The notes below the pieces were generated by a model. That model saw nothing but the letters and a program-made list of their open reading frames with translations, was not told the DNA's origin and ran no database searches. From positions 1 to 49,282 of the forward strand of contig CAVSHO010000003.1 in assembly GCA_963727825.1 (NCBI GenBank): DNA of 49,282 bases. The letters are read 5' to 3'. Of the stretch, positions 14,161 to 21,345 are shown one piece after another. The translations under genes and the position numbers were made by a program. This stretch comes from Ignavibacteriota bacterium. GTDB lineage: Bacteria > Bacteroidota > Ignavibacteria > UBA10030. Every line of letters begins with the position of its first letter. Positions within the stretch are counted from its first letter, which is position 1.

Positions 14161-14235
14161 TCGGGGTGAGAGGATTCGAACCTCCGGCCTCCTGCGCCCA
14201 AGGCAGGCGCTCTAACCGGGCTGAGCCACACCCCG
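14161..14235 (-). tRNA. tRNA-Pro(UGG), intact copy (integration site)
   Basis: CGGGGTGTGGCTCAGCCCGGTTAGAGCGCCTGC-CTTGGGC-GCAGGAGGCCGGAGGTTCGAATCCTCTCACCCCGA. Confidence 0.96.
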
Positions 14236-14237
14236 AA
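14180..14237. repeat. att core copy 1 (5' 56 nt of tRNA-Pro plus 2 upstream nt)
   Basis: acctccggcctcctgcgcccaaggcaggcgctctaaccgggctgagccacaccccgaa, identical to 21236-21293. Confidence 0.95.
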
Positions 14238-14304
14238 TAATTTTAACTAATTTCGACAACTTCTAACTTCGTGTTGAGTGATGTGTCGATTTTATTTCAC
14301 TCAC

Positions 14305-14326
14305 TTGGTAACCAATTTGGTAACCA
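14305..14326. promoter_or_regulatory. Putative integrase arm-type sites (pair)
   Basis: ttggtaacca x2 (14305-14, 14317-26), 12-bp period; similar to gcaaccaa x2 at the other end. Confidence 0.6.
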
Positions 14327-14335
14327 TCGACCTCG

Positions 14336-14387
14336 AATAAAAAACGTCAAGCGAAACGGAGCTTCCAATTCCAAAACACTTGACGTT
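14336..14387 (-). terminator. Terminator at the end of the element's replication/HTH operon
   Basis: Minus strand AACGTCAAGTG...CGCTTGACGTT then TTTTATT. Confidence 0.65.
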
Positions 14388-14508
14388 CTACTCTTTCGAG
14401 TAAATTTCTTTTTGCTTTTTCCGGAAGCTTGTTTCTTTAAGTCTTATTTAATTTACGAAACAATGACAGCGAAGGCAAGGAGAATTCCGGTAAACTTTTA
14501 GTATAGTT

Positions 14509-14919
14509 TTAGTCAATTACATATTTTGTTCCCTGAAGTTCATCTTCAAAGATATTTTCTATACCACCCTCTGAGTATGATACTCCCCTCAACTCTCCAG
14601 CAATTTTTTCTTGTAATGTTATGGCAATTGCTAAAAGTTTTTCATCTGGTGTGTCCTTAAATGTTCGCTTCTCCAATTCCGCCTCTACTTTTCGGAGCTG
14701 CTTTGCAAGCCGTTTAATTCTTTCCTGTCTTACAAGTTGGAATTCTTCCGCCAATGCCATATACCGGATGAATGATGCTTCTGAAATCTTCACTTTGAGT
14801 TCACCTTCCCAGTTCATTAGTGTCGGTTTAGAGACTGAGATTTCTTTTGCAATCCGGTCAAAGGAATATCCCTCAGCCCTTAGTTGTATAAATTGTTCTT
14901 TTGTTGTTGTGTCTTTCAT
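14509..14919 (-). CDS. HTH protein resembling a phage small-terminase N-terminus (136 aa)
   Basis: MKDTTTKEQFIQLRAEGYSFDRIAKEISVSKPTLMNWE HTH then coiled coil; ATG 14919 after RBS AAAGGA; TerS role is inference. Confidence 0.6.
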   Translation of the reverse strand: MKDTTTKEQFIQLRAEGYSFDRIAKEISVSKPTLMNWEGELKVKISEASFIRYMALAEEFQLVRQERIKRLAKQLRKVEAELEKRTFKDTPDEKLLAIAITLQEKIAGELRGVSYSEGGIENIFEDELQGTKYVID

Positions 14920-14962
14920 TTGCGTTCCTTTTTTTAGTGTCAGTTTGTTGAAGCATATCGAA

Positions 14963-15160
14963 CTATATTGTATTAAAATCATGTTGAAGCATAGAAAGCA
15001 TTTTCATTCCGGTTGCTGTGTATTCTCGAATATATCTGCCTATATCTACACCTTGATTTGCTGTGATCTCTCCCGTCCACATCTTTTCTTCTACAAGTTC
15101 ATTAGCTTCTGTGATTACAGTGAGCATGTCCTCTTCAATTCGTTCAATCGGTGTTTTCAT
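14963..15160 (-). CDS. Small hypothetical protein of the element
   Basis: MKTPIERIEEDML...; AAAGGA RBS before ATG 15160; co-oriented in the operon. Confidence 0.55.
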   Translation of the reverse strand: MKTPIERIEEDMLTVITEANELVEEKMWTGEITANQGVDIGRYIREYTATGMKMLSMLQHDFNTI

Positions 15161-15265
15161 AGTATTCCTTTTTATAGCTTCCGAGTTCACAGTTCTTTCG
15201 TTGTATAACAGTGGAGTTCCTTTTATCTAAATATGTAAATAGCTCCCTTTTTTATAGTGTCGAAT

Positions 15266-19029: not shown

Positions 19030-19224
19030 TCATGAATTTAGATCATGCCCACAATATCTACAAACTTTCGCTTCTGGTTGAATTTTTTCTGCACAATAAG
19101 GGCATTTTTTCATTACCAATTCAGCTTCCCTATCCTTTTCTTTCTGTTTACTCTTATTACTCATCATAATTGTTGTTCCGGCAACAAAACAAATAAGAAG
19201 AAATAATAAAAACCATTCATCCAT
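19030..19224 (-). CDS. Small membrane-anchored zinc-ribbon protein
   Basis: N-terminal TM; C-terminal [28 protein letters not shown]. Confidence 0.85.
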
Positions 19225-19365
19225 GATCTTCTCTCCTTAATGATTAATATTTTTCTACGCTATTCAGAGAATATTAACCATTCATCGAATAATTGTCAAC
19301 AAGTTGAGAATGGACAGCTTCTCAAATTTCAACAAAGACAAATATTCAATCCTTTATTAGAAAGG

Positions 19366-19962
19366 CTATTCAACATCTCCCGATTTGACAAGAAGCTCGA
19401 ATAATTTAATCGAAGCGACGACATTTGTACCACGATCAAATATTATGCAGATAACAGGCTTAAAGAAATCATAGACTTTTTTCCCTTTTACATCAAGTTT
19501 CTTAAATGTTTTTAAAGTGTCTTTTGCTATAGTACATAGATGGTTATCATTAAGTTTCATGTATTGCCAAGCTAAGTTGATAGCAATAATGTTGCCACTA
19601 TACACATAGATACTATCCTCCGAGAGATAGTCTTCATATATTCTTTTTTGTACCTCTTTATCATTAATAAAATATTTATACTTATTTTTTGTCATTCTTG
19701 ACAAAGCATGTGTCTTTCTATGATAGAACCATGAACTATTGTTCAATTGCCCTCTTTGCTCAGGCATCTCTCTAAGGATTAAATCATCTGTATCAGGGAA
19801 ACCACTTTCAACAGCATCTGGAAGGCCTATTATTGCTTTTACATCACTTTGAGACATTCCAACTTTTATTTTTGGAATTATATTCTTTTCATCATTTGGA
19901 GAATTATTTTGACACAATAAAAGTGAGGTTGTGATGAACAATAAAAGAAATATCTTTTTCAT
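19366..19962 (-). CDS. Exported/lipoprotein with SmpA/BamE-like motif (cargo)
   Basis: Signal MKKIFLLLFITTSLLLC; IKVGMSQSDVKAIIGLPD...WFY. Confidence 0.7.
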   Translation of the reverse strand: MKKIFLLLFITTSLLLCQNNSPNDEKNIIPKIKVGMSQSDVKAIIGLPDAVESGFPDTDDLILREMPEQRGQLNNSSWFYHRKTHALSRMTKNKYKYFINDKEVQKRIYEDYLSEDSIYVYSGNIIAINLAWQYMKLNDNHLCTIAKDTLKTFKKLDVKGKKVYDFFKPVICIIFDRGTNVVASIKLFELLVKSGDVE

Positions 19963-20074
19963 ACTACGCTCCCATGGTATTATTTGATTAAATGATACAA
20001 CTAAAAGAAAATCAATTCAACTACCCCTTAAAATCATGTGCTATTCTTCCATATTTGCGATATAAGCAACGTTC

Positions 20075-21145
20075 TCAGTTCATAGATACAGAAATCTTGT
20101 TCACCTCAGCATGTAGGCTCTCAGGCTGTAAATGACTGTATATTTGTGTTGTCTTTACGTCTGAGTGTCCAAGTAAGTCCTTAATCACATATACAGACGT
20201 TCCATCTTGCGCTAACCAAGAAGCAAACGAGTGCCGGAGTGAGTGAAAATGTATGTTCTGGTTGCTAAGGTTCGCAAGTCTCACATAGCGTTTGAACAAG
20301 TGCGTAATCCAATCGGCGTGAATTATTTTTCCGTTCAAGGTAAAAATATATTCAGAAGTATCCTTCGATTGTTTTCTCACTAAAAGATAATAGGCGTTTT
20401 CATTTAAAGGAATAACTCTAAGCCTTCCTGATTTTGTATGAAAGGTTGGATTACTTTCAATGGTCAATAGCTTCCTTTGAAGGTCGACGTTTTTCCATTG
20501 GAGATTGATAAGCTCACCTCGTCTTAATCCTGTGCTTACGGCGAAGATAATAACCTCTTTTAACCATCCTTCTTCGATTTCGGAAATAAGTTTTTGAAAA
20601 TCTGGTTTTGAAAGATAAGTGGGCTGTGTTTCTGGAACGTGAACAAGCTGAATGTCGAAGGGTGTTCTTTCAATAAGCTTCCACCGGACGGCTGTATTGA
20701 AGAAAGACCTCAGCGTTCTTAATTCAATGTTGACCGTAACCGGACTTACCGTCTTCAACTTCTCTGATACGTGACCATCTTTTACAGTCTCCACCTTGAT
20801 AGGCTTTTGTCTCTCTGTTTTGTAATTATCGAAATGTTGAGGGGTGTATGAAGCAAGGGGTAGGTCGCCAATAATTGAAACGAAGTTGTTGAGTGAGGTT
20901 TTGTAGATTTCAACCGTTGCTTTAGAGAAGCTTCCCTCAGCATAGGAAAGAAAATCGACGAGAAATTCAGATAGAAGCTTTCGCTTTATCTTCTGCTTTC
21001 GTTCGTACTCATCCCGCTTGAAGCTTTGTAGAAACGTGAGTGCATCGGCTTTGTAAGTGCAACGAGTAGAGACTTTTTGCTTTTTGCCTTGCTCGTTGAT
21101 GAACCAAAGGTAATAGATACCGTTGGAATGTTTTGAGAGGAACAT
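20075..21145 (-). CDS. int: Tyrosine recombinase / phage integrase
   Basis: TGLRRGEL (R), HSLRHSFAS (HxxR), LLGHSDVKTTQIYSH (H,Y); N-terminal arm-binding-like YYLWF...KVST; ATG 21145 (alternative GTG 21169). Confidence 0.96.
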   Translation of the reverse strand: MFLSKHSNGIYYLWFINEQGKKQKVSTRCTYKADALTFLQSFKRDEYERKQKIKRKLLSEFLVDFLSYAEGSFSKATVEIYKTSLNNFVSIIGDLPLASYTPQHFDNYKTERQKPIKVETVKDGHVSEKLKTVSPVTVNIELRTLRSFFNTAVRWKLIERTPFDIQLVHVPETQPTYLSKPDFQKLISEIEEGWLKEVIIFAVSTGLRRGELINLQWKNVDLQRKLLTIESNPTFHTKSGRLRVIPLNENAYYLLVRKQSKDTSEYIFTLNGKIIHADWITHLFKRYVRLANLSNQNIHFHSLRHSFASWLAQDGTSVYVIKDLLGHSDVKTTQIYSHLQPESLHAEVNKISVSMN

Positions 21146-21172
21146 CGGAAGCCCCGCTTTCTGAGGCACGAA

Positions 21173-21192
21173 GCAACCAAAGAGGCAACCAA
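21173..21192. promoter_or_regulatory. Putative integrase arm-type sites (pair)
   Basis: gcaaccaa x2 (21173-80, 21185-92), 12-bp period, same orientation as the 14305-14326 pair. Confidence 0.55.
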
Positions 21193-21235
21193 CGAGAAAA
21201 GAAATGCAGAAATTGAGGTGTAATTACGGCTTTTT

Positions 21236-21293
21236 ACCTCCGGCCTCCTGCGCCCAAGGCAGGCGCTCTAACCGGGCTGAGCCACACCCCGAA
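21236..21293 (-). pseudogene. Truncated 5' fragment of tRNA-Pro(UGG) = att core copy 2
   Basis: Identity to the intact tRNA ends at ...GCCGGAGGT (start of T-loop), followed by AAAAAGCCG. Confidence 0.93.
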
Positions 21294-21316
21294 CTTACAT
21301 TCATAAATTTCAAGTA

Positions 21317-21345
21317 AATATAAAGATTTTTGACTTCTGTTTCAA
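21317..21345 (-). promoter_or_regulatory. Native tRNA-Pro promoter, now upstream of the truncated tRNA and int
   Basis: TTGAAA(21345-40)-17 bp-TATATT(21322-17), about 25 nt upstream of tRNA position 1. Confidence 0.7.

Follow-up and report, generated by a model that had tools for sequence, protein, structure and literature searches.

The window, meaning the whole 49,282-nt stretch of DNA that was analysed, carries on its minus strand an intact tRNA-Pro(UGG) gene and, 7.0 kb upstream on the same strand, a fragment that matches positions 1-56 of this tRNA with 100% identity. An integrase gene and the other genes of an inserted element, here called element A, lie between the two, and the remnant of an older insertion, element B, adjoins the fragment. 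The features are:

14160 to 14235, minus strand: intact tRNA-Pro(UGG) gene (ARAGORN; Rfam tRNA, 68 bits), its downstream flank syntenic with relatives
14180 to 14237, minus strand: attR copy of a 58-nt direct repeat (tRNA positions -2 to 54)
14236 to 21235, minus strand: element A, about 7.0 kb, its long ORFs all sharing the strand of the tRNA; absent from the orthologous locus of relatives
14276 to 14302, minus strand: inverted repeat GAGTGAA-N13-TCACTC between arm repeats and tRNA (coordinates counted by hand)
14307 to 14326, minus strand: two copies of TGGTTACC, 12 nt apart, in the gap that separates the tRNA from the hairpin; candidate arm-type sites
14324 to 14453, minus strand: structured RNA-like cassette (RNAalifold; covariation)
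14336 to 14387, minus strand: long hairpin with U-tract, next to a GNRA-loop hairpin at about 14389 to 14402
14450 to 14478, minus strand: outward-facing promoter TTGCCT-17-TAAATT at the right end of element A, conserved in 12/12 aligned instances
14509 to 14982, minus strand: helix-turn-helix protein, 157 aa, with weak matches to transcription regulators and terminase small subunits (E 2e-4 to 7e-3)
15266 to 16492, minus strand: DnaB-like replicative helicase (PF03796, E 1.4e-32; phrog_19, E 3.1e-66)
16479 to 16919, minus strand: DnaD-like helicase loader (phrog_2514, E 4.9e-30)
16919 to 19962, minus strand: cargo and unassigned ORFs of 130, 212 and 178 aa, a 64-aa zinc-ribbon protein and an ORF of 198 aa
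20075 to 21169, minus strand: tyrosine integrase IntA, 364 aa from GTG (PF00589, E 3.4e-34; phrog_1, E 1.5e-72)
21172 to 21191, minus strand: two copies of TGGTTGCY, 12 nt apart, in the gap that separates int from the 5' fragment; putative arm-type sites for the integrase
21236 to 21293, minus strand: attL copy of the repeat, the truncated 5' tRNA-Pro fragment
21294 to 22897, no strand assigned: element B remnant, inserted relative to relatives (homology to G005 resumes only at 22898)
21317 to 21345, minus strand: promoter TTGAAA-17-TATATT, assigned to element B (consensus scan; aligns with the int-tRNA-Asp spacers of G000:C11 and G014:C46)
21410 to 21814, plus strand: decayed stub of the element B integrase (tblastn, 46% identity, E 7e-31)
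22202 to 22777, plus strand: BglII-like type II restriction endonuclease ORF within the remnant (PF09195, E 3.6e-17; PADLOC REase_II, E 1.3e-30)

Reversed insertion into a single-copy tRNA gene

The direct repeat is exact (14180-14237 and 21236-21293 are identical at 58/58 positions) and, read on the tRNA strand, begins 2 nt ahead of the tRNA and ends at T54, the first base of the T-loop, so that the attL fragment lacks the T-loop, the 3' arm of the T-stem and the 3' strand of the acceptor. The polarity is reversed because element A carries the 5' part of the tRNA. The first-pass annotation had described this duplication of the 5' end and the extent of the repeat correctly, and the remaining geometry that it reported is also borne out: the co-oriented int, placed within about 90 bp of the truncated copy, most likely starts at a conserved ATG 90 nt behind it, and the intact tRNA, 7 kb downstream, stands behind the hairpin with U-tract at 14336-14387. 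The crossover point cannot be placed within the block, since no difference distinguishes attL, attR and the attB of relatives there. tRNA-Pro(tgg) is present once among the 45 tRNAs that ARAGORN finds in the 14-contig assembly (96.8% complete), with no further copy.

The Islander criteria (PMC4383910) call for a full tDNA with a co-oriented end fragment, upstream in the case of a 5' fragment, an integrase inside and a length of 2-200 kb; here the 5' fragment is co-oriented, int lies inside at 20075-21169 and the interval measures 7.06 kb. As an added criterion, the interval is absent from the orthologous site in relatives. The empty locus of G005, G006, G014 and G015 consists of an M23 peptidase gene, about 250 nt, tRNA-Pro and a TPR gene, and by this comparison the whole of 14236-22897 is inserted. 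The repeat is not a product of chance or misassembly.

Gene content and ends of element A

The int gene is intact, and IntA matches the tyrosine recombinase/phage integrase profile PF00589 with 118.5 bits (cutoff 27.1). Its start codon is either GTG 21169 or, with higher probability, the conserved ATG 21145. Its pairwise alignment shows the words LRRGE, HSLRHS, GHS and IYSHL, which may represent the catalytic Arg, the His-x-x-Arg box, the second His and the Tyr nucleophile. Among the cargo ORFs, only the 64-aa zinc ribbon exceeds its Pfam cutoff; the 198-aa ORF has one weak BamE match below the cutoff, and those of 130, 212 and 178 aa match nothing in Pfam, PHROGs, NCBIfam or PADLOC. PICI-like phage satellites are characterized by an integrase, regulators, a replication module, packaging or capsid-redirecting genes and dependence on a helper. 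Element A has int and the DnaD/DnaB-like module, its sole packaging hint is phrog_2538 at E 0.002, and profile searches recognised in it neither an excisionase gene nor a capsid or packaging gene; no similarity to phage records was found at the DNA level. Element A is most likely an integrative element of about 7 kb with its own replication genes, and its tyrosine integrase would recombine with tRNA genes in reversed, 5'-complementing polarity. No attP circle or empty attB joint occurs in four public DNA runs, which contain only short contigs of depth 2-5.

TGGTTGCY has 10 matches across the window, four of which form the two pairs, one at each end of the element; in the sister elements these positions are occupied by other repeats. 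The palindrome GAGTGAA-N13-TCACTC occurs in all three elements of this kind in the genome and in the majority of the other instances. What these three elements have in common is limited to int and the non-coding ends; the cargo ORFs, save for partial matches, are not shared with the two sisters.

Reversed polarity in the integrase family

The two sister elements are likewise reversed and occupy tRNA-Arg(CCG) and tRNA-Arg(ACG). Their integrases are 75-76% identical to IntA, and each has an exact 55-nt 5' tRNA fragment before int and the intact tRNA 6.0-7.5 kb downstream. For five tRNAs of the genome a 5' fragment lies upstream at a distance of over 2 kb; the same genome yielded no 3' case of island size. 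Homologous integrases also leave such fragments, with 17/45 related integrases lying behind a co-oriented 5' tRNA fragment. Among 15 reversed loci fetched from other genomes, nine have the intact partner tRNA downstream, including one in the single-contig genome G015; in the other six the partner does not occur in the fetched stretch, which leaves less than 5 kb to the contig end in L057 and L066, 10-13 kb in L076 and L085, and about 16 kb of downstream sequence in each of L060 and L068. In a quick integrase tree the two polarities are interleaved, with 7 changes by parsimony, and in some relatives attP contains almost full-length copies of the tRNA; together, these two observations suggest a simple route for polarity flips. 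Reversed polarity is a habit of the family and not an accident.

Element B and the promoter facing the integrase

The consensus scan recovers TTGAAA-17-TATATT at 21345-21317, as reported in the first-pass annotation, which took it for the native host promoter of tRNA-Pro. That identification is refuted, as the promoter sits in the element B remnant. The native tRNA-Pro promoter of relatives is TTGATT-17-TATATT, 25 nt ahead of the tRNA, and this stretch is gone from the window. The sequence ahead of the attL fragment aligns closely, promoter hexamers included, with spacers beside tRNA-Asp, the gene that intact relatives of element B adjoin, and 21304-21840 shares 72% identity with G000:C11:153148-153717. 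The integrase stub corresponds to residues 4-150 of 349, has an internal stop and lacks the catalytic domain. These alignments indicate that an element of a related family, type B, with its int divergent from the tRNA, used the same tRNA gene earlier and then decayed, and that the promoter now facing IntA is a type B promoter and not that of the host. What stands of the proposal that a tRNA promoter points into int is the arrangement itself: the promoter present before integration faces int across the 5' fragment, with no terminator-like fold between them (folding z -0.6).

A conserved promoter and structured RNA ahead of the rebuilt tRNA

The right end of element A carries the outward-facing promoter at 14450-14478, upstream of the hairpin. 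In the 12 aligned instances the -35 TTG is invariant, the spacer varies, and the -10 reads TATATT in nine, TAAATT in two and TATTTT in one. In the window this promoter scores 8/12, under the threshold of the sigma-70 consensus scan; the first-pass annotation had missed it.

The region 14236-14420 folds at -44.8 kcal/mol (z -3.0). RNAalifold on six sequences finds 7/23 pairs compensatory, and in an alignment of 16 sequences, itself fitted to the model, 92.3% of cells are paired and 13/23 pairs are changed on both sides, versus 2-8 with the partners slid. The stems covary, and G-U pairs occur on the tRNA strand. A search of 14100-14600 against Rfam 15 (E<=1) matched only the tRNA and no family for the cassette. 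Our model R1 has 15 matches in 8/16 genomes of the genus and none in G005 and G006, where the tRNA-Pro site is empty. Outside the training set, 9/10 matches are followed by a full co-oriented tRNA 70-193 nt on, of six kinds, and the tenth is only 97 nt away from the end of its contig; overall, the cassette precedes at least eight kinds of rebuilt tRNA.

Ordinary tRNA genes of the genome have TTGnnn-17-TATATT ending 11-21 nt ahead of the tRNA, and several others have no recognisable promoter. In agreement with the earlier annotation, which saw no clear promoter in 14236-14335, the consensus scan lists no sigma-70-like site there on the minus strand, and a conserved canonical promoter between hairpin and tRNA is absent in 12/12 instances. 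Weak private promoters are conceivable, because sigma-70-like matches scoring 9/12, the best in this interval, occur in two of the 12 instances.

Proposed mechanism

We propose that attP would read, in order, outward promoter, structured RNA with its terminator-like hairpin, arm repeats, tRNA-Pro from -2 to 54, arm repeats and int. Integration turned the former 5' portion of the tRNA into a dead fragment immediately ahead of int and restored a working gene by joining the element's 5' portion to the host's 3' portion; the cell's only tRNA-Pro(UGG) therefore lies behind element DNA. The promoter at 14450-14478 would transcribe the structured RNA, and read-through of the hairpin would transcribe the rebuilt tRNA, to be trimmed by RNase P. 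In the excised circle, the same right-end promoter would read through the tRNA fragment into int. Since the element promoter would serve the tRNA when integrated and int in the circle, integration would swap promoters, the element's passing to the tRNA and the former tRNA promoter to int. The rebuilt tRNA and, in the circle, int most likely owe their transcription to the cassette, and we regard the explanation as a whole (reversed integration by element A, a decayed type B element and a right-end promoter serving tRNA or circle int) as probable. The earlier claim that the tRNA depends on element DNA stands in part: the rebuilt single-copy gene lies behind such DNA, with no canonical promoter in the last 100 nt and a terminator-like hairpin before it.

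It is also tempting to speculate that the cassette is a regulated leader, through which the element controls hairpin read-through and so tRNA supply when integrated and integrase supply in the circle, although we hold this to be rather unlikely. If it were true, Pro-UGG, Arg-ACG and Arg-CCG would be the three dependent tRNAs of the genome, imprecise deletion of the element would cost the host the tRNA, and the promoter swap would give the element a means of timing its integration.

Alternative readings

One alternative treats the cassette as a free-standing small RNA gene or operon terminator, with the tRNA using a non-consensus promoter of its own within the preceding 90 nt, one that may overlap the arm repeats or the GAGTGAA...TCACTC palindrome. 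Sufficient read-through for an essential tRNA is disfavoured because the hairpin with UUUUUUAUU resembles an efficient terminator, and hairpin and U-tract are conserved as in a true one. Moreover, a conserved block about 55 nt before the tRNA contains TAAAAT or TAAAAA in 5/12 instances (the best -10 in two), and other tRNAs of the genome share the want of a recognisable promoter. This candidate -10, however, is not conserved in L119 and L120 and has no matching -35, whereas the promoter ahead of the hairpin is conserved in 12/12, and the constant linkage of cassette and tRNA is what one transcription unit would be expected to show. We consider such a promoter possible, but not the expected case.

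The original proposal, in which a captured host tRNA-Pro promoter drives int under growth-rate control and the tRNA needs antitermination, making an integration/excision switch, appears improbable. Its geometry of promoter, 5' fragment and int is real, with the intervening DNA free of terminator-like folds; a hairpin with U-tract does precede the tRNA; and in G002 a decayed copy of the same element type sits at the same tRNA-Pro, its broken int facing a native-type promoter, TTGATT-17-TACATT. The promoter in the window is nevertheless that of element B, no antiterminator or regulator was identified, and nothing would be switched off, because the integrated and excised states both leave an intact tRNA. 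We give almost no credence to an artefact, be it a misassembled metagenome bin or an ordinary 3'-type island later rearranged. The assembly has 14 contigs and 6.55% contamination, and the public DNA runs cover the element by short contigs only. Against this, the architecture recurs twice more in the genome and at nine fetched loci elsewhere, one of them in a single-contig genome, matching arm repeats stand at both ends, and a 151-nt public contig, possibly from the window's own sample, bridges attR at 14223-14373 with zero mismatches.

Comparison with known systems

Classical integration into tRNA genes, as in phage P4, HP1, pSAM2 and many islands, complements the 3' end. Element A shares with these systems the enzyme family, an int beside attP and co-oriented with the tRNA piece, an identity block that ends in a loop region, and arm-type repeats flanking the core. 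In contrast, its attP carries the 5' part of the tRNA, and therefore the intact gene, now without its own promoter, is separated from int by the length of the element. With outward 'circular-form' promoters, for example Pcirc of ICEclc, int is driven only when the element has been excised; the right-end promoter would similarly read into int once the ends are joined but, as proposed here, would also serve the rebuilt tRNA when integrated. dusA-specific elements restore the 5' end of their target gene. Their integrases (PMC4482086) also target the 5' end of a host gene, so that the element must replace the front of the gene, but the target is protein-coding and the integrase family is another. 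Tycheposon-like elements and phage satellites, as far as described in bioRxiv 10.1101/2020.12.28.424599, are similarly small, encode a tyrosine recombinase and a helicase-based replication module, sit at tRNA genes, stack in tandem and leave decayed remnants beside tRNAs; element A differs in having no recognised capsid or packaging gene and only a weak terminase-small-subunit-like match.

Close counterparts are 5'-fragment tRNA islands. These encode a tyrosine integrase and are bounded by an intact tRNA gene and, upstream of it and in the same orientation, a 5' fragment, so that the element brings both the front of the gene and its upstream region. They number 159 of 3919 Islander islands (PMC4383910), and the tRNA integration section of PMC6563490 calls this class 'considerably less frequent', citing Zhao & Williams 2002 (J Bacteriol 184:859). 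The mode is thus already catalogued, as a rare class, whereas in this genome it is the dominant one, and it is accompanied by a conserved promoter-plus-structured-RNA cassette before many rebuilt tRNA genes of this bacterial group. The consulted parts of PMC4383910 and PMC6563490 mention no cassette of this kind.

Reversed integration forces a mobile element to provide the expression signals of an indispensable host gene, and a portable cassette reused ahead of at least eight kinds of tRNA is the visible solution. If the cassette drives the tRNA, three essential tRNAs of one genome would be transcribed from mobile DNA, which would make the elements more stable and couple the supply of tRNA to them. 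Finally, island finders and annotators that expect 3' fragments only would mis-draw such islands and mistake an element promoter for that of the host, as happened in the first-pass annotation.

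An element that duplicates the 5' end of tRNA-Pro(UGG)

Element A (14236..21235, minus strand, ~7.0 kb) is integrated in tRNA-Pro(UGG), and the following features define its ends:

14160-14235, minus strand: intact tRNA-Pro(tgg)
14180-14237 and 21236-21293: exact 58-nt direct repeat

Read on the tRNA strand, the repeat begins 2 nt upstream of tRNA-Pro and its last base is T54, as the first-pass annotation had described. Past T54, the sequence following the upstream copy (21236-21293) is unrelated to the tRNA, and this copy is therefore a dead 5' tRNA-Pro fragment. The co-oriented integrase that had been noted behind it is also present: IntA is a 364-aa tyrosine integrase on the strand of the fragment, with its conserved ATG at 21145, 90 nt past the fragment. 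All long ORFs between IntA and the intact tRNA-Pro run in this same direction, and those that are recognisable encode a zinc-ribbon protein, a DnaD-like loader, a DnaB-like helicase and a helix-turn-helix protein. No excisionase gene was recognised in element A, and NCBIfam and PADLOC assigned no function to its unknown ORFs. Against phage records, the element gave no DNA-level match, and its helicase found matches at only ~26% identity.

The intact tRNA had been placed far downstream, behind a terminator and with no clear promoter in 14236-14335. Both observations stand, as there is a hairpin with a U-tract at 14336-14387 and a consensus scan of the tRNA strand finds no promoter-like site in that interval. 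The check for other copies of the gene gave a single tRNA-Pro(tgg) among the 45 tRNA genes of the assembly (14 contigs, 3.12 Mb, 96.8% complete). Integration has thus left the former 5' part before int and put the only tRNA-Pro(UGG) of the cell behind element DNA.

Sister elements in the same genome

We searched the contig of each of the 45 tRNAs for fragments of that tRNA. For five (Pro-tgg, Arg-ccg, Arg-acg, Asp-gtc and Leu-taa), a 5' fragment lies at a distance of more than 2 kb upstream, and several show short 5' scars no further than 700 nt away. Fragments of the 3' end were seen at short range only, for Ser-gct (together with a cross-match from the adjoining Ser-tga) and Leu-caa. Two of these tRNAs, Arg(CCG) and Arg(ACG), hold sister elements (L101, G000:C11:128476-136060, and L102, G000:C11:156478-162613, respectively), each consisting of an exact 55-nt fragment, an IntA homologue (76% and 75% identity, respectively), 6.0-7.5 kb of other genes and the intact tRNA. 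The three elements have only int and the non-coding ends in common, their inner genes being different.

Each of the three has short paired repeats of its own, placed at corresponding positions on either side of the tRNA piece. Those of element A are TGGTTRCY pairs (14307/14319 and 21172/21184). As judged from sequence, this arrangement is consistent with arm-type integrase sites within one attP. The attP is a module made of the cassette described below, arm repeats, the 5' part of the tRNA, arm repeats and int. A pseudo-acceptor pairing, in which the 5' fragment would fold with downstream element sequence, was rejected, as the sister elements do not share it.

The promoter facing IntA and an earlier insertion

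The TPR gene on the downstream flank adjoins tRNA-Pro in 13 of the 15 other searched genomes of the genus, and four of the relatives (G005, G006, G014 and G015) show the order M23 peptidase, about 250 nt, tRNA-Pro, TPR gene. On the peptidase side, homology to G005 ends at window position 22898, a point that in G005 lies about 155 nt upstream of the tRNA. The whole of 14236 to about 22897 is thus inserted DNA. The native tRNA-Pro promoter of the nearest relatives, TTGATT-17-TATATT, ends 25 nt before the tRNA and is gone from the window. The first-pass annotation had taken the TTGAAA-17-TATATT at 21317-21345 for this native promoter, a claim that has to be given up, as the sequence aligns with spacers of a second family of integrative elements, type B.

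No searched relative has a counterpart of 21294-22200 at its tRNA-Pro locus. The stretch 21304-21840 is 72% identical to G000:C11:153148-153717, in the same genome, and 70% identical to a stretch of contig C46 of G014. Both matches comprise the start of an intact 349-aa integrase and the spacer to a divergent, intact tRNA-Asp; these spacers align closely with the window, TTGAAA-17-TATATT included, the next tRNA being Asp there and Pro in the window. The type B island on C11 (L023 2496-7711) is missing in seven relatives, G005 among them, whose two flanks join at tRNA-Asp. The far end of the island carries a degenerate 5' tRNA-Asp fragment. Because of this fragment and the spacer promoter, type B is also of reversed polarity, that is, it brings the 5' part of the tRNA, and it brings its own tRNA promoter. 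The sister elements L101 and L102, ~20 kb apart, flank this island, so this stretch of C11 is a cluster of reversed islands.

In the window, the decayed type B copy (remnant B, 21294..22897) retains only residues 4-150 of the integrase, with an internal stop. It also contains the following feature:

22202-22777, plus strand: BglII-like type II restriction endonuclease ORF, beside the integrase stub

Because no methyltransferase was recognised among the scanned neighbouring ORFs, this endonuclease may be an orphan or decaying gene. A search of the window (word size 7, E<=10) returned no third tRNA-Pro fragment as the far end of remnant B. In the likely history of the locus, type B came first and tRNA-Pro was rebuilt behind the type B promoter, element A then entering the rebuilt gene. 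The promoter facing IntA thus comes from an earlier element and not from the host.

Four public DNA runs of one study, possibly from the window's own source sample, contained no attP circle, empty attB or junction joint in their short, low-depth contigs, and the attL junction was covered only partially.

A promoter and structured-RNA cassette before the rebuilt tRNA

We aligned the 260 nt before the rebuilt tRNA from six close elements. They share a conserved cassette, consisting of a promoter, TTGCCT-17-TAAATT (window 14478-14450), then a hairpin with a GNRA loop and then a long hairpin with a U-tract. RNAalifold found compensatory changes in 7 of 23 pairs among the six sequences, and a covariance model trained on them gave 15 matches in 8 of the 16 genomes of the genus, with none in G005 or G006, both of which have an empty tRNA-Pro site. 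Across the whole family, there were 24 matches in 10 of 86 genomes and 3 of 33 genera. Nine of the ten genus matches outside the training set are followed by a full co-oriented tRNA 70-193 nt later (Arg-tcg twice, Arg-acg twice, Thr-cgt twice, Arg-ccg, Leu-taa and Met-cat), and the tenth is 97 nt away from the end of its contig. The cassette matched no Rfam family.

Among 16 aligned cassettes, in an alignment fitted to the model, 92.3% of cells are paired, and both partners have changed in 13 of the 23 pairs; when the partners are slid by 1-3 columns as a control, these values are 34-46% and 2-8 pairs. G-U pairs are frequent in the stems on the tRNA strand, which favours an RNA made in the direction of the tRNA. 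All 12 aligned instances have the -35 TTG, with a -10 of TATATT (nine), TAAATT (two) or TATTTT (one), and the spacer sequence varies. Between hairpin and tRNA, none of the 12 instances has a conserved canonical promoter (best matches 6-9 of 12, not mutually aligned), and no sigma-70-like promoter is conserved in the 90 nt that precede the tRNA. The genome's ordinary tRNA genes have TTGnnn-17-TATATT, which ends 11-21 nt upstream of the mature 5' end.

How the tRNA is transcribed can be read in two ways. In the main rival explanation, which we consider less probable, the cassette would be a small RNA or a terminator in its own right, and the tRNA would be served by a non-consensus promoter of its own. 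In the preferred reading, the cassette promoter, as the one conserved promoter that is suitably placed, probably transcribes the structured RNA and, via read-through, the tRNA. In the excised form, this cassette promoter would read across the tRNA fragment into int, so that integration would swap promoters. In tandem arrays, the signals of the upstream element would face the int of the next one. Such a facing arrangement is seen in the window (type B before A) and in G019, a genome with six cassette copies, where one cassette lies ~230 nt upstream of the 5' fragment and int that belong to its neighbour in a tandem array.

In a separate locus (L115, G003:C145:6900-9000), a cassette is followed by a full tRNA-Leu(taa) and then by an integrase of the standard class (see the table of classes below). 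Either an upstream reversed and a downstream standard element share this tRNA, or the attP contains a whole tRNA.

Both polarities occur within one integrase family

IntA homologues (E<=1e-30) are present in 40 of the 86 genomes of the family. A scan of a contig database with IntA gave six loci, the single close one (46% identity) being in a MAG titled Ignavibacteriae bacterium. We fetched 40 loci and the one named MAG locus, and set their classes by features within about 330 nt upstream of int. The tree, a quick maximum-likelihood search, has 45 rows: 40 fetched loci, the three elements of this genome and two type B integrases. L059, a reversed locus with a broken integrase, was left out.

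Classes of the 45 tree rows (labels from the int-proximal side only)
Reversed: co-oriented 5' tRNA fragment upstream of int; 17 rows
Standard: full co-oriented tRNA upstream of int (one relabelled by hand); 20 rows
None: nothing tRNA-like upstream of int; 6 rows
Type B: full tRNA upstream of int, divergent; 2 rows

The suggestion to look for 5' tRNA fragments beside homologous integrases was thus borne out in 17 of 45 rows. Among the 15 reversed loci that came from other genomes, 9 have an intact partner tRNA 5-8 kb downstream; it was not found in the other six, where the contig ends within 5 kb (L057, L066) or at 10-13 kb (L076, L085), or where ~16 kb were searched (L060, L068). Reversed polarity is a habit of the IntA integrase family. 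Of the seven rows in the IntA subclade (support 100), six are reversed and the seventh has nothing tRNA-like upstream of int. That reversed polarity might be the mark of one integrase clade was rejected, as the two polarities are interleaved in the tree; with seven changes by parsimony, polarity has flipped repeatedly.

A distal copy is visible in only 2 of the 20 standard loci, in both cases a near-whole tRNA that begins at position 8 or 9 and runs through to the 3' end. In these loci (L082, G083:C29, and L071, G083:C139), 5.5-kb elements lie between complete or nearly complete copies of tRNA-Leu(taa) or tRNA-Met. It is plausible that an attP with an almost whole tRNA, as these loci suggest, is an intermediate between the polarities.

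In the subclade of two elements in tRNA-Gln(ctg), L069 (G009) and L073 (G005), the direct repeat reaches ~75 nt beyond the tRNA on its upstream side and takes in a canonical TTGCCT-17-TATATT; a promoter is therefore present at both junctions, one copy having been brought by the element.

Relation to known islands

Reversed tRNA polarity itself is already known, and rare. In the Islander article, 3760 of 3919 islands have a 3' fragment and 159 a 5' fragment, and the filters explicitly admit a 5' fragment upstream (PMC4383910). Krupovic et al. (PMC6563490) likewise describe this polarity as the considerably rarer one. Within the literature searched, itself available in part and with Zhao & Williams 2002, Williams 2002 and Mageeney 2020 outside its scope, we found no description of a portable promoter and structured-RNA cassette, of its reuse before many kinds of tRNA, of such a density of reversed elements in one genome or of interleaved polarities within one integrase family.

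Candidate remnants and other tRNA genes

Positions 1-69 of tRNA-Leu(taa) are copied 2.5 kb upstream of the gene at 91% identity (L103, G000:C7:147648-150339), a candidate reversed remnant. Exact 24-35-nt copies of the 5' end are found 94-669 nt upstream of tRNA-Leu(cag) (C9, 167302; two copies), tRNA-Asn (C12, 44898; two copies) and tRNA-Arg(tct) (C10, 130089); by their sequence, they look like scars of lost reversed elements. Near the start of another contig, a broken IntA-like integrase (G000:C1:3224-4237; 40% identity), interrupted by one in-frame TGA, stops ~260 nt short of tRNA-Pro(ggg). The window also has a tRNA-His(gtg) near its start (164-238, minus strand) and, near its end, a tRNA-Ile(gat)/tRNA-Ala(tgc) pair (47154-47332, plus strand), the usual spacer of an rRNA operon.
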